DNA of 63,227 nucleotides, counting the filler, from Raillietiella orientalis (taxonomy: Eukaryota), in NCBI GenBank assembly GCA_036172245.1. It is 8 parts of 8 records of this genome, joined end to end, with 100 filler letters (N's around TTAATTAATTAA, not from the genome) between each part and the next. Parts side by side here need not be neighbours in the genome. Positions count along the whole stretch, not along the records: positions 48,092 to 55,621 come from JAYWIR010000300.1; 7 more parts are not named here. One strand, 5' to 3'. Positions within the stretch are counted from its first letter, which is position 1. Each line of letters starts with the position of its first letter. The notes under the pieces are model-generated. The model was not told the origin of the DNA. It saw only the letters and a program-made list of their open reading frames with translations, and made no database searches. This document shows, one piece after another, positions 5,415-57,339 of the stretch. The position numbers and the translations under genes are program-made.

Positions 5415-5479
5415 AACCTACAGAATTGCGCTAAAACGCAGGAGCAGCAAAAAAAACACGTCTGCCGTCCTGAGGTGCA

Positions 5480-8055
5480 CACCCGGATGTGCCGAAGCAT
5501 TTATTTTTTAGAAATAAAATTACATAGAAATGTCGCGTGGCGAACCTTAAGGTTCACCACTCCAAAACAGCTTGCTGGTTACCGGCTCAATGAGAGAGGT
5601 TCTTCCGATGCGCGGGGATGAGAAATAAAGAAAAACAAAAAGAAACAAAAAGTTCAAATGTGGGGGGGAACAAATGTTGTAGGGGTGGGAGGACGGGGAA
5701 GGGATCACGGTGCGCGTGGACAGGTCCTCTAGATCGTATTCAGGATCCGCACAAGCTGAGTCCTTTCAGCGCCCAAGTGGCGCCACTTGCAGACACTGCG
5801 CGCGAAAAGGCGAGTCCAGTGTGAGGCGTTGCCGGTTGGCTGACGCCTTCTTTTGGTGGCGTTCCAAGCCGCCACTATTCCTCTGATGCAGCAGAGGACT
5901 GCTACACTAGCCGGCGAAAACAAGGCGTCACTACAGAAGTGGCGCCATAAAACGTCATTTGGGCCGCATCCGCGCAAGTCCAGGATCGCCACGAGACGAT
6001 CCCACAAAAGGCAGAGGGCGCTACACTTAAGGAGAAGGTGGGGGAATGTTTCTTCTTTCCCACACCGGTCACAATTGGGATCCACAGCCCCCCGTTTGGT
6101 GTGATGCAGGCGTGCTTTGAACAGTAATCCCCAGAGTGCCACAAGCAACGACACACTCTGCCATTTCAGGGGGAGGGATGCACTGTTCCAGGACGCTGGA
6201 AGCCACTTCATCTCCTCCATAGATAGTCCGAGTAGCTCGCCCAGCGTCGAATTCCGCTGGGCGGGACACTCGGCGTCGCAGCGTCAGCTAGCTGCCGAGA
6301 TGTCCACGCCTTTATCGATTGTGTCCGGCTGCCTATAGTGCAGGACACGGTCCACTTCCCCTGCTCGCTACTGTCCCTGGCATTCACAAGGAAGGGCAGC
6401 ACTGGGGCGAGGGGGGTTATCAAGGCCCACAGAAGCTTCTTGTGGGACTGCACGATCTCCTGCAGCATCCAGCGGGCGTGCCTTCTCATACAAGTGTTCC
6501 TTGTGCCCGCCGGAACGTAAATCTTTACCCAGGTGGAGACCGACTCGTGCAACCAGGCGGAGTAGTTCCCTGGGAGGCAGGAGATCCAGGCGTTCTCTCG
6601 AACCGCAACGAAGATGCGTCGCAGCATAGAGCCACAGCAAGCTCTTCTGCAGACGCGCGCAGACAGAAACGACAAAAGTCCGCCGATTCCGCAGGCTCGT
6701 TGGGCCAGGAGGCGTGCTGGAACGCACCATGGCGTGTCACACAATTCGGCCGCGAGGGCGAAAGTCCAGAATCCAAGTTGCAGTTCGATGCGCTTCAGCG
6801 TAACTACGCCAAGTCCACCGTCCTTACGTAGAGCGCACAAGTCTTTGAGCCTCACACGGGACCTCCCTTTGCCCCAAATGGCTGTCCTCAGGAGGCCCGC
6901 TGCTCGTTTCCGAATAAAATAAGGGGCCAGGCAAACAAAAAGTAATAGACGAAGGAGGGAGGCCGCAAACGCGTTCCACACGACGGCCCGTTCCTGCAAG
7001 TAGAACCTGCCTTCATGGAACGGACCGATCGCCAACGCTGCCTTTTGGAGACGGTCGGACCATGCCTCTGCTGCGCAGAAGTCCCCCAACAGTACGCCGA
7101 GGTACTTGAAGCACCTGCCCGTGGGGATCCCCAAGCGGATCCAGTCCGACCGTCCAGCCCACGCCGAACTGACAAAGACCATGGACGACTTCGCCCTGTT
7201 CACCTCCAGGCCCGTCCAAGCGGCGCAGCAACTCGAAGAAGTCCTCGAGCGCACTCGCCTGGGTGGACCCGGGAAGCAGCAGCAGAAGATCGTCTGCATA
7301 GGCCGTCACGGCAGGCGTGCCGGCACACGAGCTCGGCAGTGTTGCCAGAGTTACTCTGTATGCCCTCAGCACCAACTCGAAGTAGGTGCTGAAGAGCAAG
7401 GGGCTCAGGCTGTCACCCTGCCAAATGCCGCGGCACACTGGCACGCCGTACACGTGCCGGCCGCTGAAACCAATATTTATTGACGCGTTGCGCCAGCAGG
7501 AGCACAGGTAGGACTGGAGCACGGACGAAAAATCCATGCGTTTTAGGAGCTCCAGAAGGAGATCATGGTCGACGCAGTCGAATGCTTTGTGCAAATCGAC
7601 CGCGACCGCAAAGGCTCCCGCCGAGACCGTCCTTTCTTCTGCATGATCTTGTTGGTCAGAGGGGTGCGCGAGGCTCCCTTGACTATCCTGAGCAACGCGT
7701 TGTCGCAACTGCCACCATGAGCTGGCGAGGAGCAGGTTGGCCTCCATGGTTCGTCCGGGAACAGCGTAGGTCTGCTCGGGATTCACCACGGAAGCAGCCA
7801 CCCGCTCCAAACGCTCAGCCCACAACTTGGCATACAACTTTGCGTCCGCATTCACTTCTGTGATGGGACGCCAGTTGCCAATGTTGCGTAAGCATCCTTA
7901 TTTCGGCAGGAGACGTACTTTTGCTGACCGGAAGGAGGCGGGGACTTCTCCGTGTTCGGCGATCAGCGTACCCAACCTGAGCACCAGGGGGGCCAGCTCT
8001 GGCGCGAAGTGTTTGTAAAACTCCGCGGGCGGGCCGTCCTTCCCTAGTGCTTTCC
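5480..8055 (-). mobile_element. Tx1/L1-type element, family II, RT to 3' end (frameshifted); carries an uninterrupted KAFD site at 7578-7591
   Basis: ORF 7013-7855 has QTYAVPGR, DLHKAFD, GIWQGDSLSP and YADD. Downstream are FKYLGV and CDRCGKEETFPHLLLKC. The 3' end is AATAAA...CCGGGTG at 5480. Confidence 0.92.
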
Positions 8056-8155
8056 NNNNNNNNNNNNNNNNNNNNNNNNNNNNNNNNNNNNNNNNNNNNT
8101 TAATTAATTAANNNNNNNNNNNNNNNNNNNNNNNNNNNNNNNNNNNNNNNNNNNN
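8056..8155. other. Artificial contig-joining linker (N run, TTAATTAATTAA, N run); repeated at 16182-16281, 24211-24310, 32167-32266, 40120-40219, 47992-48091, 55622-55721
   Basis: The 100-nt spacer is identical each time and contains a six-frame stop 12-mer. The complete contigs decrease in length (8026, 7929, 7856, 7853, 7772, 7530), as expected for size-sorted unplaced contigs. Confidence 0.97.
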
Positions 8156-16181: not shown

Positions 16182-16281
16182 NNNNNNNNNNNNNNNNNNN
16201 NNNNNNNNNNNNNNNNNNNNNNNNNTTAATTAATTAANNNNNNNNNNNNNNNNNNNNNNNNNNNNNNNNNNNNNNNNNNNN

Positions 16282-24190: not shown

Positions 24191-24310
24191 ACGACTCCAG
24201 ATTCCGTGTGNNNNNNNNNNNNNNNNNNNNNNNNNNNNNNNNNNNNNNNNNNNNTTAATTAATTAANNNNNNNNNNNNNNNNNNNNNNNNNNNNNNNNNN
24301 NNNNNNNNNN

Positions 24311-30599: not shown

Positions 30600-31900
30600 T
30601 TCCGACTCCGACGCGGAGGTGGAATATAAAGTCTGCGGGATCCCAGTCTCCTTCCTGAAGCCCTACCGCATGACCAAGACTACCCGGAAAATTATTTCCT
30701 CCATCGAAAGGGGAGGGATATTTGCAAAACCTTTCGTATGTCGCTCTCTTGGCCGTGCAGTTCGGCCTTGAGTTCTTCCGACGACTGCTGGAATGTGGCC
30801 TCCTCCATCTCATCCAGCGCATCTCGCGGCTCCCTCTGTTTCCTCAGAAGATTTGCGTGCGATCGTCGCGGCATCGTCGGATAGAAGTGGGCAATCTCTG
30901 CCTCGGTGGTACATCGGTTGTCTCTACACACTAAGGCCACCAATCGTTGATGGAGATTTTCGCGGAGCCTTTCTTTGACGCGACGCCTTTTTGCCCTTTC
31001 TCGGAGCCTTTTTTGGAATTTCTATAGTCCTCACCAATTGCCGTCGCTCACTCGCACCAGTTCCGTCGGTACGTCTCTCCCTTTGGAAGCGTTTGCCTGC
31101 TGGTTTGAGGATCCGGCATTCGCCTTTATACTTTTTTCATACTGGGTTTGTTTTTCAGTTTTCAGGCGTGTTTCGCCTTGTGCTTCTCGAGCAGATGCGG
31201 GTACTGGTGTTTTCCTCGTGGAACATGCAATTTGCATGGGACCGTTTTCTCTGCAAACGCAGCATTCGCTTTCCCCGCTCCGTATCACCAGATGTCCCGG
31301 AGTTTCGCAATGCCCGCAGTATTTGGGCTTCCCATGCACCAGACATCCACCGACTCGCTTTCGAACTTGATTTTGTGGGGAAGCTATTTATTTTCCCCAC
31401 CCGTGATGCGCGCGGTTGCCAGCTCGCTGAAGAGCCAACCGAACTGTTCCAGTGCGTTCGGCTTGGTTAATAACGCGTATAGGGTGCCCAATTCCTGCGA
31501 TTTCTCGTGCACTGTCTCTATTTTCATTTGAAGGGTGAATCCCTTTACGTGCAACACCATTGACTGATCTTGTAAAGAGGGTAAGACCTTGCGACTGTTG
31601 ATCACGATCGGGTCCTTAACAAGCTCCGAGCCAGACCAGGCTTGCTTCTTGACAGATCAGCTCGATGCGGCGACTCTCACTCAGAAATGCCATTTCTTCA
31701 AGGTCTTCCTCCTTCACGTAAAGTCTCCGGAATTCCCTCGCGATCGCACGCGAGATATTCCCTTGCAATACGCAGCTTACCTCATATTTGAGGCTCGGCT
31801 TATAGACCTGTTCCTGATAGGTGGCTGATTCCCCTAGAGCTTCCTCGGATATTATTCAAACCACGCTGCTCCTGCTCCTCGCCTTCCGCGAAGAGGGCCT
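30600..31900 (-). pseudogene. Degenerate ORF1 of another Tx1-type element
   Basis: Remnants YKPSLKYEV, KVLPSLQDQSMVLHVKG and GKPKYCGHCETPGHL. Confidence 0.7.
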
Positions 31901-32166
31901 CAAAGAAGCGGCTGCCAGGATGCAGGCACATGGAGGAGGAGTGGAGAGACCGTCGTCCCCCATGGAAGCCATGGAGGTAACGTGCGGCAACGGCGAGGCG
32001 GTGGCAGGCATGCCAAGGATCGCGCCCGCGGCGGGCTTTGCTGCGCCGGCGGCGGCGATGCCAAGGGTCGTGCCCGCGGCGACGACGGCGGAGGTCGTGC
32101 CCGCGGCGGCGACGCCGAGGATCGTGCCCGCGGCGGGGAAGGTCGCGCCTGCGGCGGCGATGCCGA
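31900..32166 (+). pseudogene. Family IV ORF1 N-terminal Ala/Pro repeat fragment
   Basis: MPRIAPAAGFAAPAAAMPRVVPAATTAEVVPAAATPR is nearly identical to the segments at 49500-49690 and 55200-55390. Confidence 0.8.
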
Positions 32167-32266
32167 NNNNNNNNNNNNNNNNNNNNNNNNNNNNNNNNNN
32201 NNNNNNNNNNTTAATTAATTAANNNNNNNNNNNNNNNNNNNNNNNNNNNNNNNNNNNNNNNNNNNN

Positions 32267-40119: not shown

Positions 40120-40219
40120 NNNNNNNNNNNNNNNNNNNNNNNNNNNNNNNNNNNNNNNNNNNNTTAATTAATTAANNNNNNNNNNNNNNNNNNNNNNNNN
40201 NNNNNNNNNNNNNNNNNNN

Positions 40220-43200
40220 CGATTGCGACCGAATTCATCGGGAAGCGGCCATGGTCGTTTTGGTGCAAGTGCGCAGATTTGGACGGAAAACACCACACTG
40301 GAAATAGAAAACATAGAGGAATTTCTGTGATGCATTTTGAAGATTCAATTTCTATGCTGGAAGACAAAGTAGATTGATTCCAACCGTTTTGATGTCTCAG
40401 GATTTCGACCGAATTCATCGGGAAGCGGCCATGGTCGTTTTGGTGCTAGTGTGGAGATTTGGACGGAAAACACCACATTGGAAATAGAAAAGATAAAGGA
40501 ATTTGTTTGATCCACTTTGAAGATTCTATTTGGATGTAGGAAGTGGAAGTAGATTGCTTCCAACCATTTTCATGTCTCAGGATTGCGACCGAATTAATCG
40601 GGAACCGGCCATGGTCATTTTGGTGCAAGTGCGGAAATTTGTACGGAAAACACCACATTGGAAATAGAAAAGATAAAGGAATTTTTTTTATCCACTTTGA
40701 AGATTCTATTTGGATGCAGGAAGTGGAAGTAGATTGCTTCCAACCATTTTGATGTCTCAGGATTGCGACCGAATTCATCGGGAACCGGCCATGGTCGTTT
40801 TGGTGCAAGTGCGGAGATTTGGACGGAAAACACCACATTGGAAATGGAAAAGATAGAAGAATTTCAGCAAATTGCATTTTTCCCGCGAATAACACTTGCT
40901 GGATGTTATTCCTGCAGCCCCACCAACCATTTTGATGTCTCAGGTTTTCGACCGAATTCATCGGGAATCGGCCATGGTCGTTTAGGTGCAAGTGCGGAGA
41001 TTTGGACGGAAAACATTACATTGGAAATAGAAAAGATAAAGGAATTTTTTTGATCCCCTTTGCAGATTCTATTTGGATGTAGGAAGTGGAAGTAGATTGC
41101 TGGCTTCATTTCCTTCTCAGGATTGCGACCGAATTCATCGGGAAACGGCCATGGTCGTTTTGGTGCAAGTGCGGAGATTTGTACGGAAAACACCACATTG
41201 GAAATAGAAAAGATAAAGGAATTTTTTTGATCCACTTTGAAGATTCTATTTGGATGCAGGAAGTGGAAGTAGATTGCTTCCAACCATTTTGATGTCTCAG
41301 GATTGCGACCGAATTCATCGGGAACCGGCCATGGTCGTTTTGGTGCAAGTGCGGAGATTTGGACGGAAAACACCACACTGGAAATAGAAAACATAGAGGA
41401 ATTTCTGTGATGCATTTTGAAGATTCAATTGCTATGCTGGAAGACGAAGTAGATTGATTCCAACCATTTTGATGTCTCAGGATTGCGACCGAATTCTTCG
41501 GGAAGCTGCCATGGTGGTTTAGGTGCAAGTGCGGAGATTTGGACGGAAAACACCACATTGGAAATAGAAAAGATAGAGGAATCTTTGGGAAGCACTTTGA
41601 AGATTCTATTTGGATGCAGGAAGTGGAAGTAGATTGCTTCCAACCATTTTCATGTCTCAGGATTGCGACCGAATTAATCGGGAACCGGCCATGGTCGTTT
41701 TGGTGCAAGTGCGGAGATTTGGACGGAAAACACCACATTGGAAATAGAAAAGATAGAAGAATTTCTGTGATGCATTTTGAAGATTCAATTTCTATTCTGG
41801 AAGACCAAGTAGATTGATTCCAACCATTTTGATGTCTCAGGATTTCGACCGAATTCATCGGGAAGCGGCCATGGTCGTTTTGGTGCTAGTGTGGAGATTT
41901 GGACGGAAAACACCACATTGGAAATAGAAAAGATAAAGGAATTTTTTGATACACTTTGAAGATTGTATTTGGATGTAGGAAGTGGAAGTAGATTGCTTCC
42001 AACCATTTTGATGTCTAAGGATTGCGACCGAATTTATCGGGAACCGGCCATGGTCGTTTTGGTGCAAGTGCGGAGATTTGGACGGAAAACACCACATTGG
42101 AAATAGAAAAGATAAAGGAATTTTCTTGATCCACTTTGAAGATTCTATTTGGATGCAGGAAGTGGAAGTAGTTTGCTTCCAACCATTTTGATGTCTCAGG
42201 ATTGCGACCGAATTCATCGGGAACCGGCCATGGTCGTTTTGGTGCAAGTGCGGAGATTTGGACGGAAAACACCACACTGGAAATAGAAAACATAGAGGAA
42301 TTTCTGTGATGCATTTTGAAGATTCAATTTCTATGCTGGAAGACGAAGTAGATTGATTCCAACCATTTTGATGTCTCAGGATTGCGACCGAATTCTTCGG
42401 GAAGCTGCCATGGTGGTTTAGGTGCAAGTGCGGAGATTTGGACGGAAAACACCACATTGGAAATAGAAAAGATAAAGTAATTTATTTGAACCACTTTTAA
42501 GATTGTATTTGGATGCAGGAAATGGAAGTAGATTGCTTCCAACCATTTTGATGTCAAACGATTGCGACCGAATTCATCGGGAACCGGCCATGGTCGTTTA
42601 GGTGCAAGTGCGGAGATTTGGACGGAAAACACCACATTGGAAATAGCAAAGATAGAGGAATTTTTCTGATGCATTTTGAAGATTCTATTTCTATGCTAGA
42701 AGAGGAAGTAGATTGATTCCAACCATTTTGATGTCTCAGGATTCCGACCGAATTCATCGGGAAGCGGCCATGGTCGTTTACGTGCAAGTGCGGAGATTTG
42801 GACGGAAAACATCACATTGGAAATAGAAAAGATAGAGGAATTTTTTGCATACACTTTGAAGATTGTATTTGGATGCAGGAAGTGGGAGTATATTGCTTCC
42901 AACCATTTTGATGTCTAAGGATTGCGACCGATTTCATCGGGAACCGGCCATGGACGTTTAGGTGCAAGTGCGGAGATTTGGACGGAAAACACCACATTGG
43001 AAATAGAAAAGATAGAGGAATTTTTCTGATGCATTTTGAAGATTCTATTTACATGCTGGAAGAGGAAGTAGATTGATTCCAACCATTTTGATGTCTCAGG
43101 ATTCCGACCGAATTCATCGGGAAGCGGCCATGGTCGTTTAGGTGCAAGTGTGGAGATTTGGAGGGAAAACACCACATTGGAAATAGAAAAGATAGAGGAA

Positions 43201-46200
43201 TTTCTGTGATGCATTTTGAAGATTTAATTTCTATGCTGGAAGACGAAGTAGATTGATTCCAACCATTTTGATGTCTCAGGATTTCGACCGAATTCATCGG
43301 GAAGCGGCCATGGTCGTTTTGGTGCTAGTGTGGAGATTTGGACGGAAAACACCACATTGGAAATAGAAAAGATAAAGGAATTTTTTTGATCCACTTTGAA
43401 GATTCTATTTGGATGTAGGAAGTGGAAGTAGATTGCTTCCAACCATTTTCATGTCTCAGGATTGCGACCGAATTAATCGGGAACCGGCCATGGTCGTTTT
43501 GGTGCAAGTGCGGAGATTTGTACGGAAAACACCACATTGGAAATAGAAAAGATAAAGGAATTTTCTTGATCCACTTTGAAGATTCTATTTGGATGCAGGA
43601 AGTGGAAGTAGTTTGCTTCCAACCATTTTGATGTCTCAGGATTGCGACCGAATTCATCGGGAACCGGCCATGGTCGTTTTGGTGCAAGTGCATAGATTTG
43701 GACGGAAAACACCACACTGGAAATAGAAAACATAGAGGAATTTCTGTGATGCATTTTGAAGATTCAATTTCTATGCTGGAAGACGAAGTAGATTGATTCC
43801 AACCATTTTGATGTCTCAGGATTGCGACCGAATTCTTCGGGAAGCTGCCATGGTGGTTTAGGTGCAAGTGCGGAGATTTGGACGGAAAACACCACATTGG
43901 AAATAGAAAAGATAAAGTAATTTATTTGAACCACTTTGAAGATTGTATTTGGATGCAGGAAATGGAAGTAGATTGCTTCCAACCATTTTGATGTCAAACG
44001 ATTGCGACCGAATTCATCGGGAACCGGCCATGGTCGTTTAGGTGCAAGTGCGGAGATTTGGACGGAAAACACCACATTGGAAATAGAAAAGATAGAGGAA
44101 TTTTTTGCATACACTTTGAAGATTGTATTTGGATGCAGGAAGTGGGAGTATATTGCTTCCAACCATTTTGATGTCTAAGGATTGCGACCGATTTCATCGG
44201 GAACCGGCCATGGACGTTTAGGTGCAAGTGCGGAGATTTGGACGGAAAACACCACATTGGAAATAGAAAAGATAGAGGAATTTTTCTGATGCATCTTGAA
44301 GATTCTATTTCCATGCTGGAAGAGGAAGTAGATTGATTCCAACCATTTTGATGTCTCAGGATTCCGACCGAATTCATCGGGAAGCGGCCATGGTCGTTTA
44401 CGTGCAAGTGCGGAGATTTGGACGGAAAACATCACATTGGAAATAGAAAAGATAGAGGAATTTTTTGCATACACTTTGAAGATTGTATTTGGATGCAGGA
44501 AGTGGGAGTATATTGCTTCCAACCATTTTGATGTCTAAGGATTGCGACCGATTTCATCGGGAACCGGCCATGGACGTTTAGGTGCAAGTGCGGAGATTTG
44601 GACGGAAAACACCACATTGGAAATAGAAAAGATAGAGGAATTTTTCTGATGCATTTTGAAGATTCTATTTCCATGCTGGAAGAGGAAGTAGATTGATTCC
44701 AACCATTTTGATGTCTCAGCATTGCGACCGATTTCATCGGGAACCGACCATGGTCGTTTTGGTGCTAGTGTGGAGATTTGGACGGAAAACACCACATTGG
44801 AAATAGAGAAGATAGAGCAATTTTAAGGAAACACTTTGAAGATTCTATTTGGATGCAGGAAGTGGAAGTAGATTGCTTCCAACCGTTTTGATGTCTCAGG
44901 ATTGCGACCGAATTCATCGGGAAACGGCCATGGTCGTTTTGGTGCAAGTGCGGAGAATTGGACGGAAAACACCACATCGGAAATACAAAAGATAGAGGAA
45001 TTTTCTTGAACCACTTTGAAGATTGTATTTGGATGTAGGAAGTGGAAGTAGATTGCTTCCAACCATTTTGATGTCTCAGGATTGCGACCGAATTCATCGG
45101 GAAGCGGCCATGGTCGTTTTGGTGCTAGTGCGGAGATTTGGACGGAAAACACCACATTGGAAATAGAAAAGATAGAGGAATTTTTTTGATCCACTTTGAA
45201 GATTCTATTTGGATGTAGGAAGTGGAAGTAGATTGCTTCCAACCATTTTCATGTCTCAGGATTGCGACCGAATTAATCGGGAACCGGCCATGGTCGTTTT
45301 CGTGCAAGTGCGGAGATTTGGACGGAAAACACCACACTGGAAATAGAAAACATAGAGGAATTTCTGTGATGCATTTTGAAGATTTAATTTCTATGCTGGA
45401 AGACGAAGTAGATTGATTCCAACCATTTTGATGTCTCAGGATTGCGACCGAATTCTTCGGGAAGCTGCCATGGTGGTTTAGGTGCAAGTGCGGAGATTTG
45501 GACGGAAAACACCACATTGGAAATAGAAAAGATAAAGGAATTTTTTTGATCCACTTTGGAGATTCTATTTGGATGTAGGAAGTGGAAGTAGATTGCTTCC
45601 AACCATTTTCATGTCTCAGGATTGCGACCGAATTAATCGGGAACCGGCCATGGTCGTTTTGGTGCAAGTGCGGAGATTTGTACGGAAAACACCACATTGG
45701 AAATAGAAAAGATAAAGGAATTTTTTTGATCCACTTTGAAGATTCTATTTGGATGTAGGAAGTGGAAGTAGATTGCTTCCAACCATTTTGATGTCTCAGG
45801 ATTGCGACCGAATTAATCGGGAACCGGCCATGGTCGTTTTGGTGCAAGTGCGGAGATTTGGACGGAAAACACCACACTGGAAATAGAAAACATAGAGGAA
45901 TTTCTGTGATGCATTTTGAAGATTCAATTGCTATGCTGGAAGACGAAGTAGATTGATTCCAACCATTTTGATGTCTCAGGATTGCGACCGAATTCTTCGG
46001 GAAGCTGCCATGGTGGTTTAGGTGCAAGTGCGGAGATTTGGACGGAAAACACCACATTGGAAATAGAAAAGATAGAGGAATCTTTGGGAAGCACTTTGAA
46101 GATTCTATTTGGATGCAGGAAGTAAAAGTAGATTGCTTCCAACCATTTTCATGTCTCAGGATTGCGACCGAATCAATCGGGAACCGGCCATGGTCATTTT

Positions 46201-47991
46201 GGTGCAAGTGCGGAAATTTGTACGGAAAACACCACATTGGAAATAGAAAAGATAAAGGAATTTTTCTTATCCACTTTGAAGATTCTATTTGGATGCAGGA
46301 AGTGGAAGTAGATTGCTTCCAACCATTTTGATGTCTCAGGATTGCGACCGAATTCATCGGGAACCGGCCATGGTCGTTTTGGTGCAAGTGCGGAGATTTG
46401 GACGGAAAACACCACATTGGAAATAGAAAAGATAGAAGAATTTCTGTGATGCATTTTGAAGATTCAATTTCTATGCTGGAAGACCAAGTAGATTGATTCC
46501 AACCATTTTGATGTCTCAGGATTTCGACCGAATTCATCGGGAAGCGGCCATGGTCGTTTTGGTGCTAGTGTGGAGATTTGGACGGAAAACACCACATTGG
46601 AAATAGAAAAGATAGAGGAATTTTTTTGATCCACTTTGAAGATTCTATTTGGATGTAGGAAGTGGAAGTAGATTGCTTCCAACCATTTTCATGTCTCAGG
46701 ATTGCGACCGAATTAATCGGGAACCGGCCATGGTCGTTTTGGTGCAAGTGCGGAGATTTGTACGGAAAACACCACATTGGAAATAGAAAAGATAAAGGAA
46801 TTTTCTTGATCCACTTTGAAGATTCTATTTGGATGCAGGAAGTGGAAGTAGTTTGCTTCCAACCATTTTGATGTCTCAGGATTGCGACCGAATTCATCGG
46901 GAACCGGCCATGGTCGTTTTGGTGCAAGTGCGGAGATTTGGACGGAAAACACCACACTGGAAATAGAAAACATAGAGGAATTTCTGTGATGCATTTTGAA
47001 GATTCAATTTCTATGCTGGAAGACGAAGTAGATTGATTCCAACCATTTTGATGTCTCAGGATTGCGACCGAATTCTTCGGGAAGCTGCCATGGTGGTTTA
47101 GGTGCAAGTGCGGAGATTTGGACGGAAAACACCACATTGGAAATAGAAAAGATAAAGTAATTTATTTGAACCACTTTGAAGATTGTATTTGGATGCAGGA
47201 AATGGAAGTAGATTGCTTCCAACCATTTTGATGTCAAACGATTGCGACCGAATTCATCGGGAACCGGCCATGGTCGTTTAGGTGCAAGTGCGGAGATTTG
47301 GACGGAAAACACCACATTGGAAATAGCAAAGATAGAGGAATTTTTCTGATGCATTTTGAAGATTCTATTTCTATGCTGGAAGAGGAAGTAGATTGATTCC
47401 AACCATTTTGATGTCTCAGGATTCCGACCGAATTCATCGGGAAGCGGCCATGGTCGTTTACGTGCAAGTGCGGAGATTTGGACGGAAAACATCACATTGG
47501 AAATAGAAAAGATAGAGGAATTTTTTGCATACACTTTGAAGATTGTATTTGGATGCAGGAAGTGGGAGTATATTGCTTCCAACCATTTTGATGTCTAAGG
47601 ATTGCGACCGATTTCATCGGGAACCGGCCATGGACGTTTAGGTGCAAGTGCGGAGATTTGGACGGAAAACACCACATTGGAAATAGAAAAGATAGAGGAA
47701 TTTTTCTGATGCATTTTGAAGATTCTATTTCCATGCTGGAAGAGGAAGTAGATTGATTCCAACCATTTTGATGTCTCAGGATTCCGACCGAATTCATCGG
47801 GAAGCGGCCATGGTCGTTTAGGTGCAAGTGTGGAGATTTGGAGGGAAAACACCACATTGGAAATAGAAAAGATAGAGGAATTTCTGTGATGCATTTTGAA
47901 GATTTAATTTCTATGCTGGAAGACGAAGTAGATTGATTCCAACCATTTTGATGTCTCAGGATTTCGACCGAATTCATCGGGAAGCGGCCAT
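40220..47991. repeat. Satellite 3, 180-bp monomer, ~43 copies
   Basis: The unit GATTGCGACCGAATTCATCGGGAACCGGCCATGG.. recurs every three 60-nt lines. Confidence 0.98.
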
Positions 47992-48091
47992 NNNNNNNNN
48001 NNNNNNNNNNNNNNNNNNNNNNNNNNNNNNNNNNNTTAATTAATTAANNNNNNNNNNNNNNNNNNNNNNNNNNNNNNNNNNNNNNNNNNNN

Positions 48092-49886
48092 CGGGATCTT
48101 CTCCGGAGCGTTCCGCCTTGGCGATCACCTTGCGCGGGAGGGTCTCCAGGGAGACCGTCGCGCAGTAGACCGCCTTGACTTCCGAGAGCTGGGCCTCCAG
48201 CTTCTCTCGCTCCGGCTCCACAACCATACGGTTGACTTCGTCTTGAGCCTCGGAGATGCGGGTCAGGAGTTGCTCCTGTTGCGCCTCTGTCTGGCCTTGA
48301 CGAACCTCCTCCGCTAGTTTGACCACCTCCTCGGTGAGTTGCAGGGCCTCCTGCGACTCCGGGGTGGGTTCCGGCATCTTCACCACTTCCTCTGTTAACG
48401 TCCATTCTCGCCTTCCACTGCTGCAACCTCACGAGTAGGGGGGTTTGTTGCTCCCTCACGAGCATCTTCCTCTTCCCCTTTTCCCTATCTCCACGAAACC
48501 GTCCGCCAAAACCGGAGCGGCCTCTCTTGCCTTCTGCTTTTGTAGCTGAGGTTTAATCACCTCAGCCAACACCCTTTCCCTCACGGGGGATTCTCCTCTC
48601 ATCGTCCGGTAGTTGGCGTACTCCGGACAACTCCATTTCGAATGCCCAGGTTGCTTGCAAAAGGAGCAAAGCTCGCGCATCTTGCAGTTCCGGACCTGGT
48701 GGCCCATCTTCCCACTGCGGAAGCAGCGGGAACTAGGGTAGGCACCTAGCCGGTGGCCGAAATTTTTGCAGCCAGTGCAGAACATTGGCTGCTGTCTGTA
48801 CCTGATTGAGACATCTTGCGACGAGTCGTCAATCAGTACATTTCCGGGGATTTGCGCCCCCTCTTTTAGTTTGATTTTGGCGATTACCTCGCCCGAGAAG
48901 ATTTTCCGGAGATGTTCTGGGTTTTCATCTCCAGAACTTCTCCGTATTGGGACAGGAAGTCCCACACCGTTTCCCTCTCTGTGAGAATGCCAAGCCCGTT
49001 TAGGAAGACGGTCGTGTAAGGCATTTCGCCAATGCCTTGGACCATCTTCCCCTGAATATTAATGCCCTTTTCAATTAGGGCCTCACGCAGCTCCAAGCAA
49101 TCCGTGTATAAAATAAATCCCGCTCAATTCGGGATTATCGCTTGGAGGCGGTCGAAATCTACATTAGTTTTGCAGAGTGCGCAATACACCTCCCTGACGT
49201 TGTTAAACCGGATCAGAGCGGTTTTGAATGTAATCGGCTTGGACGCCGGGATGAGTCGAACCATCGGCTCTTTTGTTCGAGTGATGTTCTCACTCGCCTG
49301 TTTGCCAAACACCCTATTCGGCTGGGCAGAGGCCTGCCCCGCCGTCACCGCCGCATACAAAAAAGGCGGCTTCGCCGCCGCCGAGCAAGATGGCGTCGCC
49401 TTCTGCACCCCATGGACGCCCGCGGTTCCCGCCTAGGACGCCGCCGCCGCCGCGGGCGGAACCCACGCCGCTGCCGTCGCTGCCGTCGCCGCCGCGGACG
49501 GGAGCCTCGGCATCGCCGCCGCAGGCGCGACCTTTCCCGCCGCGGGCGCGATCCTCGGCGTCGCCGCCGCGGGCACGACCTCCATCGCCGTCGCCGCGGG
49601 CACGACCCTCGGCATCGCCGCCGCCGGCGCAGCAAAGCCTGCCGCGGGCGCGACCCTCGGCGTCGCCGCTGCCTCCTCGCCACTGCCGCATATTACCTCC
49701 ATGTGTTCCTCCATGGGGGTCGACGGCTGCTCCACTTCTTCCTTGTGCCTCCTTGCGGCTGCCGTTGCTGCCGCGCTTCTTGTTTGGAGGACTTCCACCT
49801 CGGGTCCTTCGGCGCTGCTGCTGCTGCTGCTGTCGGGTATTTCCCTCGGTGGCACAGTCACTTCCACACTAATCTTCGGCAGGCAC
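48092..49886 (-). mobile_element. Family IV element copy 2, 5' end and frameshifted ORF1
   Basis: Pieces 49433-49903, 49124-49408, 48884-49096, 48456-48965 and 48092-48386 align colinearly with ORF1 53673-55562. Confidence 0.88.
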
Positions 49887-50008
49887 TTGCCCTGTGAGGG
49901 CACACAAAAATTGCCTCGGCAGTGGTTTTACGCACTGCCTTGGCGGGGTATTGGGTAAAGTTTTCAACTAGCAATAATCGCGGCTCAGTCGCCTTCCTCG
50001 CCTACGAT
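49887..50008 (-). ncRNA. U4: U4 spliceosomal snRNA, lacking about the first 19 nt
   Basis: The minus strand reads ATCGTAGGCGAGGAAGGCGACTGAGCCGCGATTATTGCTAGTTGAAAACTTTACCCAATACCCCGCCAAGGCAGTGCGTAAAACCACTGCCGAGGCAATTTTTGTGTGCCCTCACAGGGCA. It has the U4 core GCGAUUAUUGCUAGUUGAAAACUUU-CCAAUACCCCGCC, the k-turn 5' stem-loop, the 3' stem-loop, the Sm site AAUUUUUG and the terminal hairpin. Confidence 0.93.
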
Positions 50009-50144
50009 TTTCCCCAAGTCCCACAGGGGGTGGGGTGAATTTATTTTCTATAATACTACAATTTTTGCATTCGCACTCTCATTCATTCTTTACACTATCA
50101 CTTTTTCACTCTGAAGTTCTTTGAATTCACTAGAGTTCTGCTTT

Positions 50145-53100
50145 TCAGGGTGGGATTCCAGCTGGATGGTCCCGGGCGTCGTCCTCGATCCTCTTCAGGA
50201 TGAATCTGTACGTCCAGGCTTGGATTCTTCCACAGTTCCTGATGCCGATTTCCTTCTTCAGGAGTCCCTGGAGGATCTCCATCGGAGGTGCGGCTCTCCT
50301 GGCTTTCCTCATTTTCCACCACCGCACAAGTATGGCGGTGCTGAAGAGGGCGATGGTCGTCCTCACCATGGGATTGTAACAGGGAACATTACCATCTTCC
50401 TGAAACATCCCGGCGAGGATCTCCATTACGGAGCTGGTGGTCCGTCCGATGATCCTTTTCAGGATCAGCCAGTCGTGAAGCAGTGTGGGACACGTCAAGA
50501 TGTGAAGTCTTGTGTCGATGTCACCACACGCTGTGCAGTCTCTGTCTTCCCTTCTTCTCGTGAAGTGTTGTAGCCTGGACCCCGTCAGGATTCCTCCATG
50601 GTAAAACATCAGGAGGTTGTCCTGGGTGTCCGGCGGAAGGTCACTCCCTCAGAGTGTCGTTCCGATCGCCAACAGGTTGATCCTGTCACTCCCGTAGCGA
50701 TCGGCGGCTTGTTGGAGGGCACTGGTGTCGCGGTCCTCTTCTTTAATCAGTCTTCGGAGGTTCATCCTGGTTACCCTGGACCACGCGAAGTCGTTGTGGT
50801 TAATCCACACCTCGCGGGTCTGGTGGGTAAACCTCCCTAGCATCATCTCTATGTACCGAAGTACACGCGAGTGATGTAGGTAGCCTCCTCGGCGCCATTC
50901 CTGAATTCGTTGCAGGGTAACTCTGGGCCGCTGGTAGATCCAGCTTCGCGTGTCCGGAGGGACCGGAAGCATCCAGGGGATCACCACGATGGATTCTTCC
51001 AGCCAGAGTTCCCTGCTTTTCGGCACGATTTTCATCTTGTGCTTACGCACTAGCCGTTGCTTTCTCCTCCAGGTTGGGTCGATGTGGATCCATTCCCCTG
51101 CTCGTTCTAGCAGCGCAGTCACCAGGCCTTTCGAGTTGTAAAGCAACAACGCGTAGGCCCTATGCGCCGCATATGGCCAGTCATCCCAATGGGTGGCGAT
51201 ATCCAGGATGTGTCGCGTATCCATGATTTCCATGGAATGTGCAAGCGATTTCATCCCGGAGCCTCCTTCGTCCCTGGGACGACACAAGGGTTTTAGACGT
51301 ACTCTTGGGCGATAGTAGCCCCACAATGTTTTCCTTTGCAGCTTCTCGAATTCCCTCGTGGTGTCTTTGTTCATTCTTGCGAAGGCTGCTCCAAAGAGCA
51401 CCTTTGGAAGGAGTACTCCGTTCCAGAGGTTAGCCTTTCGCTTTATTCCAAAGTCCAGTCGGGTAAACTTCGCTGCTTCCTTGGCCGTTTTCTCCAGGAT
51501 TGTTGTCCACAGTAGCTTCGACGCAGAGTCGTCGCCGACGTGAACTCCCAGATATTTGGCCGTGTCCACCGTTCGGAATCCTCTCCCCGTGAGGGTGGAG
51601 AGGTCTAGTATTCCAACGGTTAGGAGCTGACTCTTCTGGCGTTGATCTTTAGCCCGAGACCTTGTTCCATCAGGTCTACCACATCCAGGAACGCCCGCTG
51701 GTTCCTCTCTCCCTTGATGAAGAAGAGGAGGTCATCGGCGTACGCCAGATGGGTGAGACGCTGGCCATCGATGGTTATTCCTTGTAGACGTTCGCTTCTC
51801 TCGATAAAGGAAGACAACGCCTCCATGTAGATGACGAACAGCATCGGACTTATGGAGTCGCCCTGCCGGACTCCCCGTTCCATCCTAATTGCTGCCGTCT
51901 CCTCGCCGTTGATTTTGATGCGGCAATACTGGTTTTTGAGTACCATCTTCACGAAGTCGCTGAAGTATTCTGGAAGGCCCAGCTTATCCAGAATCTTCAG
52001 CAGCATCCTATGGTCGATGGAGTCGAACGCCTTCTCCATGTCAGTGAACACCAGCACCAGGTTCTCGCCGACGTATCGACTGAGTCCGACGGTAGCCTGG
52101 GCACACTTGACATTGTCCAACATGCGACGGCCAGGGACCGCACATGTTTGGACTGGGGAGATCAGCTTCGGCATGACCCTGCCTAAGCGGTTGGACCAGA
52201 TCTTCGCCAACCACTTGGCATCAGAGTTCAGGACGGAGATTGGCCTCCATTGAGCGACCTGCGTAAGGTCGCCTCCTTTCGGCAACAATCTCATCCTGCT
52301 CTCATAGAAGGACTTCGGTAGTTTGCCTTCTTCGCGGATGCAGAGGGTGAGCTGTTTGAACAAACGCAGGTAGGCATGCAGCTACCGCTGGTAGTGCGTA
52401 ACTGGTACGCTATCAGGGCCTGCTGCCACGTCCTTACGTAGTTCGTCGAATGCAGCTTTCACCTCGCCTTCGGAAAACTCCTCCTCCAGTCTGTTTCGTT
52501 GGAGGTCGTCTATTCTCTTCTCGAGGTGTCCCAGAAAGGCTTGTTGTATTTGTGTAGACAAATGTTGTCGACTGAAGTGATTCTCATAATGCCGATGAAA
52601 TGCATCGAGAATATCCTCTGACGTTTCTCTCATTTGTCCCTCATGCTGGATGCAGAAGATGACTGTCGCCAGATTCTTCTTCTCCAGCACGCCGATTTCC
52701 CCTTTTACATTTTTGAAGACGTACCGACTCTCGTACTGATCGTAGTACTTTGAGAGGGAGCGATCTTGAATGTTAAGCTCCCGGTACGCTTCCTGCCTCA
52801 GTCGCTTACTCAAATACTGCATATTGCAGAATAAATGGATTTTATGCTTCAACCTGTCCCAGTCGGCTACTCTGCGGATGGTGGAGTCACGCAGGATCGC
52901 CTCGATGACCTCCTGGTTACAGGGAAGCGTCTCAAACCAGGCGGGCATGCAGATGAGCGCCGCCCTGGTGGCCTTCTTTCGTCGAGGATTCTCCGTTCGG
53001 AGGGAGAACCGTATCAGCGGGTGATCGGACAGCAGAGTTTGCACGTCGCGAAACCCCTGTATGCGGTTGTCGATCTCCGCACTGTGAAGGACGTGATCAA

Positions 53101-53662
53101 TCGGTTTGTGGTGAGCTGTTCGCCATAAGAGTCCGAAATCATCGGACAACCGACGATACGCCTCTCTTCCTCTGGCGTCCTGGGAATATTTAATCTCGTC
53201 CAGGATATTCAAGTCTCCTGCGACGATGATTATGTCCTTTGGTGCTACTCTTTTGCGGAGTTCTTCGTGTAGTTTTTCCGCGCACCGATGCTTCAACTTG
53301 TGTGGTCCGTACACGTTCACCAGGAAGAGGTGAACGTTGCTGGAACAAGACAGTCGCATGCCGATTATTCTGCCAGGTATGGGACAGAAGGTTTCCAAAA
53401 TGGTGTGGGCAAGCTCGTTTTTGATGAGGATTGCCACGCCCATGGTCTTTTTCTGTCCCTCGCTGACGAACAGTTTGCCATCAAAGCGGCGTTCCATCTC
53501 CAGGACATTTTGATTTCCCAGATGGTGGGTTTCTTGTAGGCACACCACATGTTGTTGTGCGATGTTCTGCAATCTCCTTTTTCTTTTGCCTGGGTCATTA
53601 AGTCCATTTACGTTCCAGGAAGCGATGTTAACCTTCCTGGTCGAGGACAGCGACGAGGCCAC
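50145..53662 (-). pseudogene. Family IV ORF2 (APE, RT, CCHC) with in-frame stops at 52382 and 50649 and a frameshift near 51637
   Basis: APE motifs SWNVNG, LQETH, AGDLN, IDH, SDH. RT motifs WRPIS, DMEKAFD, GVRQGDSISP, YADD, KYLG. C-terminal CTACGDIDTRLHILTC. Confidence 0.93.
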
Positions 53663-53672
53663 GTTGGGGATC

Positions 53673-55562
53673 CTACTTTTTAGCTTTTCTCGTTTTCATC
53701 TGCCTGGGAGATCTTTTCGTTCTCCCGGCAGCAGATGGTTTCTCACTTCCGGCATCGCTCTCGGTGCCGGTTTGATCTTCTGCTGGACATTCTGCCTTCT
53801 CTACTATTTTGCGTGGGAGTGTTTCTAAACTCACCATCGCACAATAATCCTGCTTAACAGCAAGAATCTGCCGTTCCATCTTATCGCGTTGTTGCGTTCC
53901 TACTATTTTGTTGATGTCTTCTTGGACTTCACACAAACGACGTAAGAGTTGCTCGTGTTCAACCTGTTCGGGTTTCTGCTGGACTTCCTTCGACAGGTTG
54001 TCCATTTCCTCAACTATTAGCAGGTCTTCCTGCGATGTCGGGGCAGGGTTATCCGCCACCGCCACTTCTTGTTCTTCTTCCGCCTTCTCGCCTTCTTCCG
54101 CAATTTCTTGGGGCTTTTCGGAGTCTTGATGCTCGTTCTCGAGCATCCTTCTCTTCCCCTTCTTCTTTACTGTCACGAAGCCGTCCTCCGATATAAGAGG
54201 GACTTCGATGGTTCTCCTCGCCTTCTCCGCAACATTTCTTTTCGGCTCTTCGGCCGGCTTTTGTGGTTTCTCTCGCACGGGAGATAGACCACGCAACGCC
54301 CTCCACTCCTCAAACTTTCCGCAGTTCCACTTGGCGAGGCCAGGGAGTTTGCAGAACGAACACGCCTCCGGCTCAAGGCACTGTCTTGCTAAGTGCCCGA
54401 TCTTATTGCAACGGTAGCAGCGTGCTTTTGTGCACGCTGTCATCCGATGCCCGAATGTTTTGCAAATGGTACAGAATGGCGGTTGCATTTTGTACCGGAA
54501 CATTACTTCAGGGGAATGATTGTCTAGGTGGTACACTGCCGGAATTTGTGCCCCATCCTTCAGCTTCATTTTCGCGAAGCCTACTCCTGCGAACACTTGT
54601 TCCACAATGTTGGGTAAAGCCGCCTGCTTTATCTCCCCAAACTGTTGAAGGAATCTCCACACCTCATTCTGTGGTGTTAGCCTGCTAACACCCGCAATGT
54701 GTACAGTGGTGGTGGACAACTCGCCCAGCCCCCGTATCATTCTACCGTTAATGTTTATTCCCTGTTCGAGAAGGGAATCTGCCAATTGTTCATCATCCGT
54801 GTGGATGCTGAAGCCACTCGCGCACGGGATGATAGCCTGCACACGGCCGAAGTCTACATTGGCTCGGTTCAGGGCGAAGTAGACCTCACGAATATTATGT
54901 ACGCGGATTAACCCGGTTCTGAATGATATTATGCGTACATTTTCTTTCTCCGGTGCCATCAGTTCCGGGACGTCTTGGAGGATTAATACCCTCGGTTTTC
55001 CATATTCCCGTGCGGGGCGTACGAAAGTGTTCGCTGCCGCCGCCGCTGCTGCATAACTCAGCGGATGCTGTGTTGGGGCATCCGAGCAAGATGGCGTCGC
55101 GTCTGGCACCCTGCGTGCCGCGTGGACGCCCGCGGGTCCCGCCTGGGATGTCGTCGCCACGGGCGCAACCCTCGTCGTTGCCATCTTCGCCGTTGCTACC
55201 GCCGCCGCAGGCAGATCCCTCGGCATCGCCACCGCAGGCGCGGCCGCTGCCGCCGCGGGCACGATCCTCGGCGTCGCCGCCGCGGGCACGACCTCCGCCG
55301 TCGTTGCCACGGGCACGAACCTCGGCATCGTCGCCGCAGGCGCGTCAACTCCCGCCGCGGGCGCGATCCTTGGCATCGCCGCCTCCTCGCCTGTGCCGCA
55401 CTGTACCTTTTCAGGGGACGTCGGCCTCCTCGTCGTTTCTCCTGCTTGCATCGTCGCGGCTGGAGCTGCCGCTGGCGAAGTTCGCAGGTCTTCTTCCCCC
55501 GTGGACTCCTGGCTGTTGCTGTTGCTGCTGCTGGCGAAGATGGTCCTTGATGGCACTGTCAC
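53673..55562 (-). CDS. Family IV ORF1 (Ala/Pro repeats, three zinc knuckles, coiled-coil-like tail)
   Basis: 629-aa open frame with CTICKTFGHRMTAC, CYRCNKIGHLARQC and CSFCKLPGLAKWNC (H to L in the third). The true start codon is uncertain. Confidence 0.9.
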   Translation of the reverse strand: MTVPSRTIFASSSNSNSQESTGEEDLRTSPAAAPAATMQAGETTRRPTSPEKVQCGTGEEAAMPRIAPAAGVDAPAATMPRFVPVATTAEVVPAAATPRIVPAAAAAAPAVAMPRDLPAAAVATAKMATTRVAPVATTSQAGPAGVHAARRVPDATPSCSDAPTQHPLSYAAAAAAANTFVRPAREYGKPRVLILQDVPELMAPEKENVRIISFRTGLIRVHNIREVYFALNRANVDFGRVQAIIPCASGFSIHTDDEQLADSLLEQGININGRMIRGLGELSTTTVHIAGVSRLTPQNEVWRFLQQFGEIKQAALPNIVEQVFAGVGFAKMKLKDGAQIPAVYHLDNHSPEVMFRYKMQPPFCTICKTFGHRMTACTKARCYRCNKIGHLARQCLEPEACSFCKLPGLAKWNCGKFEEWRALRGLSPVREKPQKPAEEPKRNVAEKARRTIEVPLISEDGFVTVKKKGKRRMLENEHQDSEKPQEIAEEGEKAEEEQEVAVADNPAPTSQEDLLIVEEMDNLSKEVQQKPEQVEHEQLLRRLCEVQEDINKIVGTQQRDKMERQILAVKQDYCAMVSLETLPRKIVEKAECPAEDQTGTESDAGSEKPSAAGRTKRSPRQMKTRKAKK

Positions 55563-55590
55563 TTACACACTTCTTTTTTTTGAAAACACT

Positions 55591-55621
55591 TGCCCTGTCA
55601 GGGCACGCAAAAAATTGCCTC
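55591..55621 (-). ncRNA. U4: U4 snRNA 3' end (Sm site plus terminal hairpin), cut by the contig end
   Basis: Reads GAGGCAATTTTTTGCGTGCCCTGACAGGGCA, three differences from the corresponding 49888-49917 segment. Confidence 0.8.
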
Positions 55622-57339
55622 NNNNNNNNNNNNNNNNNNNNNNNNNNNNNNNNNNNNNNNNNNNNTTAATTAATTAANNNNNNNNNNNNNNNNNNNNNNN
55701 NNNNNNNNNNNNNNNNNNNNNCGAAAGAAAGTAGGCTGATCCAAGATTCTTTAGAAAGAAATATCTTGAAAGAAAAGCAATATTTCAATTTTTCTCAAGA
55801 CAACGGATGAAAGACCAAGGACCTCATCCACTTGGGAGAACATTTAAAACCTCCTCGGGATAAGTAAGTGTGGACTTTCTGGAAAAACATGCAAGAAGGC
55901 TTTGCGTTGCCTGTTTAAGACTAGGAAATTTTGTAACCAAAGAACGTCGACATTTACGAAAGGGCCACGTTGTCAGTTTTCCAAGCTCATCTTCTCCAAG
56001 CAGCGAAGAAATTTGAGCACATGAAAAATCCCTCATCTAGACAGCAGGACAGCTATCTGTAGCAAAAGTGGGATCCGATCCAGTCAACTTTTTATCCGAG
56101 GCGTCTGCTTTCCCTGTTTCACAGATCAGGATGCTACGCGTGCTCACAATCTGGAGATTCCCTTCTTCCAGAAGAAGGCAGCTGTTAGCTACTCCGTCAT
56201 TACATCTTCCTTGACCTCTCTGTATATGCGAAAAACGAAAAATCGTCTGAAGTGCTGTGAAATTTCCGTACACTTTGTGAACATTGATCTGTGAAACCCT
56301 GCGGATTCACAGAGAGATGATTTTGAAAGGTAGAAAAAGCTTCCTTAACCAATGTGTACTGTTTTTAACCGATTCTTTGTAATCATAGCATGGATTGTTC
56401 TTGTCAGTGGTATTGCTTTGGTCAATTGCTTCGCGGTGAGAAAAGCTACACTTAACATCTGGTTTGACCGGTGATTGGTTTAGGAATCTTGAAAGAATCC
56501 TGAGAAAATGCTCCTCCAAAGCACGTTGGAACAGAAGTAATGGTCACAGACATCTCCAGAGCACACAGTAAAGAAGTTTCAACCTTTCGCATGTAAACTA
56601 TGCTTTCCTGCTCTGTCCCATTCCCAGGCATATGAGAATGGCCAGTAATGAGGAACAATTGAGTAGGTACAGGTACAGCATGAAACTACCGTTAGAAAAA
56701 TATTTATTGATGTGTATGCAGCAAACGTTCCCAAACCCAAAGTGCTATTGGGAAAAGGTTTTCTCGATAGATTGTCAGTTTTTCCCTCAATGATCCGGAA
56801 TTCGCGTTTGCAAGATCATTGAAACAAGAGGATGAGTAGGATTCTCGAACCCCAATTGTTTTATTGCCAGGTTTTAAATGGAACAATTTTTTTTCTTTAA
56901 TTGATAAAATCTGTGGTTAATTGAAATATCACAGAAATAAAAAATTTAGGAACTGAAATAGAAATGAATGAATTTAAGAACTGAACAAAGATTGATTGGG
57001 GATCGATAGCAAAGACGCAGTTTGAATAAATAGAGATGCTACTACATCTGAAGCACTGCGCAAATAGATCAAGACCAGTTCTTGTTCCATGGATCAAGAA
57101 AACTAAGTTTTAAGTGTAATTCTTGATATTACAGAATAATTCCTTCTCTGTGTGAGCTTGGTACCCCTCTCCGAGCAACAGATGTCACAATAGCACCGTA
57201 TCCGTCGAGTGCTTCCCTTATCGCTCTCAAGAAGCAAAAATCATTAAGTACACGAATTCACTTATGCATCCATCCTTTAACCAATTTATTAATGAATTCT
57301 TCAATGGTATCATAATTTAGAACATTTTAAAAGTGGGAG

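Follow-up and report, generated by a model that had tools for sequence, protein, structure and literature searches.

A LINE family beside U4 snRNA gene pieces in Raillietiella orientalis: probable target specificity and a tentative scheme of insertion

Why do two clearly diverged long interspersed nuclear elements (LINEs) of Raillietiella orientalis both begin behind the end of a U4 small nuclear RNA (snRNA) gene, and why does one of them end within a further copy of the same gene? The question is raised by one contig (JAYWIR010000300.1, positions 48092-55621) of a 63,227-base stretch of assembly GCA_036172245.1, which is referred to below as the window. On the minus strand of this contig, the last 35 nucleotides (nt) of a U4 (copy A) are followed by a 15-nt linker, a first LINE (IV-1), a 5'-truncated U4 (copy B), a 13-nt linker and the 5' part of a second LINE (IV-2). 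This is the order given in the initial annotation of the stretch, and a second reading of the sequence confirmed it. We suggest that these elements, here called family IV, are probably specific for U4 genes, because lineages that are less than 50% alike in open reading frame (ORF) 1 share their start behind a U4 end, and because a related element copy from a separate sequencing run shares the 3' junction.

The window is composed of eight unplaced contigs, each about 7.5-8 kb, arranged in order of falling length. They are chained by seven identical joins of the form N44-TTAATTAATTAA-N44 (8056-8155, 16182-16281, 24211-24310, 32167-32266, 40120-40219, 47992-48091 and 55622-55721), and contigs that stand side by side in the window are therefore not neighbours in the genome. 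The association of U4 with a LINE is confined to the single 7.5-kb contig named above, whose edges fall within U4 copy A (55621) and within IV-2 (48092). Since the contig stops at 55621 inside copy A, it is not visible whether that copy is complete.

The identity of the flanking gene, which had been proposed subject to a comparison with Rfam, is well founded. The U4 model RF00015 matched copy B at 49890-50028(-); the score of 77.6 bits (E 1.6e-15) exceeds the gathering score of 46, and this was the sole Rfam match in the 63-kb window, both at the gathering threshold and at E<=1. The flanking RNA gene is U4, and U2 gave no Rfam match in the window. When copy B was folded, the U4 5' stem-loop, the 3' stem-loop, the Sm site and the terminal hairpin were all formed. 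Rfam model positions 1-12, which represent the U6-pairing 5' region, were paired with unlike letters. As this region is absent, copy B is a truncated U4 pseudogene and cannot function as a U4. That copy B might be a complete U4, its TATA-like box lying in the final 45 nt of the "3' UTR", was ruled out on the same ground.

Copy A is too short for Rfam, which at permissive thresholds returned chance-level matches only, and it was recognised by its likeness to the end of copy B, with which it agrees at 32 of 35 positions (blastn-short E 2.4e-5). Both copies stop at the same ...CAAGTG, 4 nt past the terminal hairpin. U4 pieces thus lie on both sides of IV-1, and the sequences that follow them are unrelated. 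The three differences between the copies are located in the U-run of the Sm site, in a spacer and in the hairpin loop, a placement that hints weakly at differences between gene copies, the chance that all three avoid paired positions being about 0.28. Exact-pattern scans of metagenome contigs with two stretches of U4 copy B returned 0 loci.

The element-to-U4 junction at the 3' end of IV-1 had initially been placed exactly at the base of the U4 5' stem-loop. This needs correction, given that U4-like letters reach back to about Rfam position 13, where they start at GGGG (GGGGAAAA, 50015-50008). Because GGGGAAAA can be read either as the element end or as U4, the junction is best located, on the alignment, within U4 nt 12-20, in the U6-pairing region. 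A hairpin at the element 3' end that includes the GGGG was dropped as evidence, as it was no better than shuffles (z -0.5).

With regard to the 5' junctions, it had been claimed that two diverged elements start immediately after a U4 terminal hairpin. Their divergence and their common position stand, but 4 nt of U4 and a linker of 13-15 nt intervene. The homology between IV-1 and IV-2 starts at 55571 and 49870, respectively, and the blocks on both sides of the linkers are 90-91% alike. The linkers themselves (A, 15 nt; B, 13 nt) showed no homology and could not be aligned with each other. Linker A together with the last U4 G fits GTTTN0-3AAARNNAGA, a consensus that is mammalian and may not be that of the host; it is quoted as the snRNA 3'-box consensus of mammalian U1/U2 (PMC9006982; this and the other articles cited here by accession or preprint number are represented by excerpts). 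The pattern was found twice on both strands of the window against 0.59 matches expected. A match directly behind a U4 end is unlikely to be there by chance, and it is as a gene's own flank would look.

IV-1 and IV-2 share 73% nucleotide identity over 563 columns and 42-48% amino acid identity in ORF1, values that rule out a recent tandem duplication of one unit. Since such diverged elements start at homologous positions behind the same U4 end, the association with U4 would have outlasted the divergence of family IV.

The 3' junction was encountered again outside the assembly. Among public runs only one, here X1, matched the contig; it contains 9% of the contig's sampled words, and no RNA run was among the matches. 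At least 175 X1 contigs aligned to the contig at a likeness of at least 80%, and the figures for X1 refer to the matches listed. Just 4 of 175 were at least 99% alike and 108 of 175 were under 90%; X1 therefore appears to represent another strain or species with related elements and not simply the assembled sample. Record 2 of X1 (455 nt) matches 49884-50053 at all but 1 of 170 nt, a stretch that comprises U4 copy B and the last 45 nt ahead of its 5' stem-loop. It breaks off exactly at 49884, where the letters shared by copies A and B also end. Upstream of this stretch, the record has 101 different letters where the contig has the preceding 91 nt of 3' untranslated region (UTR), and the end of ORF2 carries 10 differences in 184 nt. 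The U4 piece is thus much better conserved than the adjoining element, and the element-to-U4 junction recurs in a different element copy of a different data set. Hence the idea of a U4-specific family gained ground, with the same 3' junction in 2 of 2 cases (copy B and X1 record 2) among the matches listed. A weak joint in X1 links 49884 directly to 49399 with a short side of 26 letters; if real, it may represent a 5'-truncated copy at the same U4 boundary. The coordinates of the features are collected in Table 1.

Table 1. Position of U4 pieces, linkers and family IV elements in the window, listed along the minus strand; the last row lies on another contig.
Feature	Position	Strand	Basis or remark
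U4 copy A, last 35 nt: 3' stem-loop end, Sm site, terminal hairpin, +4 nt	55587..55621	-	match to copy B
Linker A, 15 nt (55586-55572), with last U4 G at 55587	55572..55587	-	3'-box pattern match
IV-1 5' UTR	55452..55571	-	homology to IV-2 from 55571
IV-1 ORF1, 592 amino acids, open	53673..55451	-	CCHC knuckles; N-terminus Ala/Pro-rich, repeated
IV-1 ORF2: APE (apurinic/apyrimidinic-type) endonuclease, reverse transcriptase, C-terminal Cys/His motif	50146..53674	-	Pfam; motif by eye
IV-1 3' UTR, variable part	50054..50145	-	replaced by 101 other letters in X1 record 2
Terminal block of IV-1 3' UTR, conserved in X1	50016..50053	-	part of 170-nt stretch 49884-50053
Junction zone GGGGAAAA, element end or U4 nt ~13-20	50008..50015	-	Rfam alignment
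U4 copy B, 5' stem-loop to 4 nt past terminal hairpin	49884..50007	-	RF00015 match, fold
Linker B, 13 nt, not homologous to linker A	49871..49883	-	sequence comparison
IV-2 5' UTR and ORF1 (ATG 49714)	48092..49870	-	several in-frame stops, frameshift; cut by contig end
Third family-IV-like ORF1 start, other contig	31909..32166	+	without about first 100 nt of 5' UTR

IV-1 is a full-length but broken LINE. Its ORF1 matched Pfam zf-CCHC with E 6.4e-4, just under the curated cut-off, and its ORF2 matched Exo_endo_phos (E 5e-16) and RVT_1 (E 7e-29). The latter frame is interrupted three times: by the stop codons TAG (52384-52382) and TGA (50651-50649) and by a frameshift that lies between 51641 and 51626. 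Pfam zf-RVT was not detected in IV-1 ORF2, though it is present in relatives. Among proteins of solved structure, human LINE-1 ORF2p was the best relative (E 2e-49), and R2 was also matched (E 5e-25). Protein searches yielded 186 proteins at E<=0.001 of 7999 candidates and 174 at E<=1e-10 of 4313. The best relatives over nearly the whole query are just 23-28% identical, and no close relative was found in the protein databases. The matched proteins bore names such as "LINE-1 ORF2", "reverse transcriptase" and "exonuclease III" or were unnamed, and a labelled Tx1 reference was not among them. For the C-terminal part of ORF2, the ESM Atlas returned unnamed eukaryotic clusters alone. The two-ORF layout of Tx1-type elements is present, CCHC knuckles being encoded by ORF1 and APE endonuclease, reverse transcriptase and a C-terminal Cys/His motif by ORF2, but plant-type L1 shares it, so that it is not exclusive to Tx1. 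From these comparisons family IV would be assigned to the L1/Tx1 group of LINEs and to no narrower clade.

Two further features of the elements may be mentioned. There is no ATG near the start of IV-1 ORF2 (53662-53674, minus strand), where the frame opens right after the ORF1 stop (TAG, 53675-53673); translation may re-initiate there or begin at a non-ATG codon, as happens in some L1-type elements, unless the start has been mutated. Moreover, the N-termini of the family IV ORF1 proteins contain tandem Ala/Pro-rich repeats of about 100 nt, with units containing MPR-x-x-PAA. The repeats at 55200-55410 (-), 49480-49680 (-) and 31975-32166 (+) are 80-86% alike within and between copies. The last of these belongs to the third family-IV-like copy, which abuts, head to head, an ORF1-like frame on the minus strand (31034-31855) that encodes CCHC knuckles.

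As regards how the arrangement arose, the explanation that best accounts for the whole is that an L1/Tx1-group LINE integrates site-specifically into U4 genes. Both variants of the second cut described below are included in it, and even so we put it forward tentatively, as it stops somewhat short of being probable. We infer the positions of the nicks, a native U4 cluster and the U4 from which the upstream flank was derived. The antisense strand would be nicked within U4 nt 12-20, and the nick would prime reverse transcription; there the T-run opposite AAAA would be a suitable site for an L1-like endonuclease. Each insertion would then be followed by U4 from about nt 13-20 to the U4 end. The upstream end of the new copy would be joined 13-15 nt behind a U4 3' end, in the 3' flank of that gene. 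According to the first variant, the upstream U4 would be the preceding gene of the cluster, and the spacer, the promoter and the first 12-20 nt of the gene that was hit would be lost, while the preceding gene would stay whole. According to the second, the upstream U4 would be the very gene that was hit, about 140 base pairs (bp) would be duplicated and a whole U4 would be rebuilt. Repeated hits, with or without unequal crossing-over between U4 pieces, would result in U4-[element-U4(13/20-end)]n.

For the contig at 48092-55621, the first variant, or alternatively a duplication followed by unequal crossing-over, is favoured because the flanks behind copies A and B differ. Insertion behind the preceding gene would leave gene-specific flanks, of which one is still 3'-box-like. 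Taken alone, the preceding-gene variant is nevertheless doubtful.

Several points weigh against targeted insertion into U4 genes as set out here. The case is built on a single contig of the window, which supplies two 5' junctions and one 3' junction, and on one contig of another run. A tandem U4 array is assumed, and neither a native U4 gene nor a cluster was seen in the window. Two independent deletions that end 13 and 15 nt behind U4 would need a specific second cut. Linker B does not fit the 3'-box consensus, which is itself mammalian. Furthermore, a U4 end stands in front of 2 of the 3 family-IV-like 5' regions in the window; no U4 precedes the third (31909-32166), where Rfam at permissive thresholds gave chance-level matches, and this copy is truncated. 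Finally, IV-2 is more decayed than IV-1, which is what an array growing upstream by duplication would predict, although with n=1 this amounts to a coin toss.

The rival that survives best is a long target-site duplication, as had been proposed initially: one U4 gene would be cut at nt 12-20 on one strand and just past its 3' end on the opposite strand, about 125-140 bp apart, U4(13/20-end) would be doubled, a whole U4 would be rebuilt upstream, and the array would grow by repeat hits on the rebuilt gene. The common last letter of copies A and B, at which X1 record 2 also stops, speaks for it, as do the more decayed state of the downstream element IV-2 and the weak X1 joint 49884-49399, which, if real, would be a truncated copy at the same boundary. 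The rotifer element R9 offers a precedent. For Utopia, Kojima and Jurka leave duplication possible (PMC4640811). Successive hits in one locus predict equal sequence behind A and B, but the 15-nt and 13-nt linkers are not homologous, and the simple form, with successive duplications of about 120 bp, does not fit the unrelated sequences behind the two U4 copies. To save the model, U4 loci would have to have undergone a further unequal crossover or a conversion with one another. In addition, the U4 tails differ at 3 of 35 positions, yet IV-1 has only three disabling ORF2 changes in 3.5 kb and an open ORF1. We thus consider successive long duplications unlikely as the source of this array. The associated claim that insertion regenerates a complete U4 upstream is kept as one of several readings, the same geometry in Utopia at U2 having been explained in print by deletion (PMC4640811).

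A carried U4, which was the second initial proposal, or its mirror image, supposes that the element RNA includes U4(13/20-end) and the linker, either through co-transcription with the preceding U4 or through read-through into the U4 piece that follows. Homology would guide or resolve integration at another U4, and the piece and its linker would travel with the lineage. Co-transcription with the target is established for ribosomal DNA elements such as R2. Carriage predicts lineage-specific linkers and U4 variants, as are seen, and the 3'-box-like relic in linker A would be captured flank. Nor did a promoter belonging to the element itself come to light, although no search was aimed at one. It presupposes, however, a first copy already behind a U4, and the 3' box should stop snRNA-type transcription before the element is reached. 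The weak X1 joint of a truncated copy at the U4 end does not suit a head that is lost on 5' truncation. The mismatches in X1, 1 in 170 for the stretch with U4 against 10 in 184 for the ORF2 end, are as in sequence derived from the target and not in sequence co-evolving with the element. On balance, there is little probability that the U4 pieces were carried in this way.

It is very improbable that targeting played no part and that the arrangement reflects chance nesting in repeat-rich DNA, misassembly of collapsed repeats or satellite-like amplification of one unit. The contig is an unplaced 7.5-kb piece with ends within repeats, and LINE pieces that are nested or in tandem are present on further contigs too, as this account would have it. 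On the other hand, the 3' junction was found again in the independent run X1, so that misassembly is unlikely; IV-1 and IV-2 are too diverged for one amplified unit; and U4, the sole Rfam match in 63 kb, is present as two pieces exactly at element ends.

The weakest alternative, chimeric retrocopies without U4 targeting, in which the reverse transcriptase, having copied the element RNA to its 5' end, switches to mature U4 snRNA, or in which both RNAs are ligated beforehand, can draw on a listing of human U4/LINE-1 chimeras (bioRxiv 10.1101/2025.02.02.635956), on the repeated gain of 5' U1/U2 sequence by the Tx1-mobilised SINEU (PMC4494074) and on a fixed U4 3' boundary that would equal the RNA end, but it is highly implausible, given that the U4 lacks its first 12-20 nt and has its 5' edge at the same position against an element 3' end in two genomes, that the snRNA is full-length in the U6 chimeras and chimeras are mostly truncated (bioRxiv 10.1101/2025.02.02.635956), with IV-1 and IV-2 full-length at their 5' ends, and that a 13-15-nt linker, in one case 3'-box-like, lies between U4 and element when mature U4 has no 3' box.

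Elsewhere in the window, other contigs also carry nested and tandem LINE pieces. A second head-to-tail junction, between two other LINE copies with APE endonuclease and reverse transcriptase, is located at 5440-5530 (-) of contig 1, where an A-rich element end (AAAAAATAAA) is followed by a GC-rich piece of about 43 nt, T8 and the 5' UTR and ORF1 of the next element. This GC-rich piece, which had no Rfam match (permissive thresholds: chance-level) and occurs just once in the window, may be part of another small RNA gene that served as a target. The sole clear host gene seen in the window is a talin rod/vinculin-binding segment, encoded by an open frame of 396 amino acids that runs off a contig end (16282-17469, minus strand) and 36-45% identical to animal talins, a likeness that points to a host from a poorly sampled animal lineage. 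In contig 6, three ORFs at 41858-47161 (-) resembled the RNF180 C-terminal family weakly and repeatedly (best E 1e-9; the 39 bits are the sum of several weak matches, of which none passes alone), and they may constitute a repeated gene or element family.

If family IV is indeed aimed at U4 genes, it concerns a small group of elements, since few LINEs are known to target snRNA genes, and a U4-specific family of the APE type would add a new target. Site-specific LINEs show how one sequence can be singled out by an endonuclease and a reverse transcriptase, and tools for safe-harbour gene insertion are being developed from them. Two diverged lineages with the same junctions provide a system for asking how the second-strand junction comes to land more than 100 bp from the first nick. 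They also bear on snRNA genes as renewable landing pads. A further-reaching reading is that the U4 gene serves this lineage as landing site and shelter, each insertion duplicating or carrying about 125-140 bp of U4 (nt 13/20 to the end) and flank and restoring, immediately ahead of the element, a complete, expressible U4 with its 3' box; we rate this as rather unlikely. Were it true, the host would keep all its U4 genes, the element would have a target to use again and perhaps the promoter of U4, and arrays would lengthen in the upstream direction by single elements. For Utopia in oomycetes, the "intact U2 upstream" may then be explained likewise.

Comparison with known systems places family IV more precisely. 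The bdelloid rotifer element R9 is reported to make a 126-bp target-site duplication. It serves as a precedent for a duplication of more than 100 bp where a site-specific LINE inserts, as the first initial proposal requires; R9 differs in its 28S target and its restriction-like endonuclease, and identical duplicated flanks were not observed here. Keno is reportedly a Tx1-clade element specific for the U2 snRNA gene, described by Kojima and Fujiwara in 2004. As an animal LINE of the APE type that is specific for a spliceosomal snRNA gene, it is close in kind to family IV (cited in PMC4494074, PMC4640811). Its target is U2, whereas family IV lies beside U4, and it is by target that the two are set apart here.

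The snRNA/LINE-1 chimeras and the SINEU heads also have an snRNA directly 5' of LINE-type sequence in the same orientation (PMC4494074; bioRxiv 10.1101/2025.02.02.635956). According to the excerpts of these sources, the snRNA there is full-length or its junction variable, the partners are 5'-truncated and the sites are scattered. In family IV, in contrast, the U4 is 5'-truncated at a fixed point against the 3' end of another element; at least nt 1-12 are missing from it, and the 5' UTRs of both elements still begin at homologous positions.

The closest counterpart is Utopia in the U2 arrays of Phytophthora, where the element is followed by U2 from nt 39 and preceded by intact U2 genes, an arrangement explained by deletion of the 5' part of the gene that was hit (PMC4640811). 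Both systems have a LINE that is joined to an snRNA gene at a precise 3' junction. The gene copy downstream of the element is without its 5' part, starting at nt 39 of U2 there and at nt 13-20 of U4 here; the missing part does not lie upstream, where there is instead the end of a gene copy, whole in Utopia and presumably also here. In both, different families occur in one array (PMC4640811). Utopia differs in its U2 target, its restriction-like endonuclease and its single ORF, family IV having U4, an N-terminal APE endonuclease and two ORFs; the hosts of Utopia are oomycetes and others, while that of family IV is an animal. Duplication and deletion were left undistinguished for Utopia, and family IV bears on the same question.

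The initial annotation knew of no U4-specific family, and none emerged here: a U4-targeting LINE was not found in the full-text literature searched, Repbase entries and subscription journals being outside reach. In its excerpted text, the 2015 paper names just Keno and Utopia (U2), Dada-U1 and Dada-U6 as snRNA-targeting transposons, that is, U1, U2 and U6 as targets (PMC4640811). Family IV is of the same functional kind as Keno and Utopia, its geometry is that of the Utopia arrays, and its U4 target is new to the literature searched.

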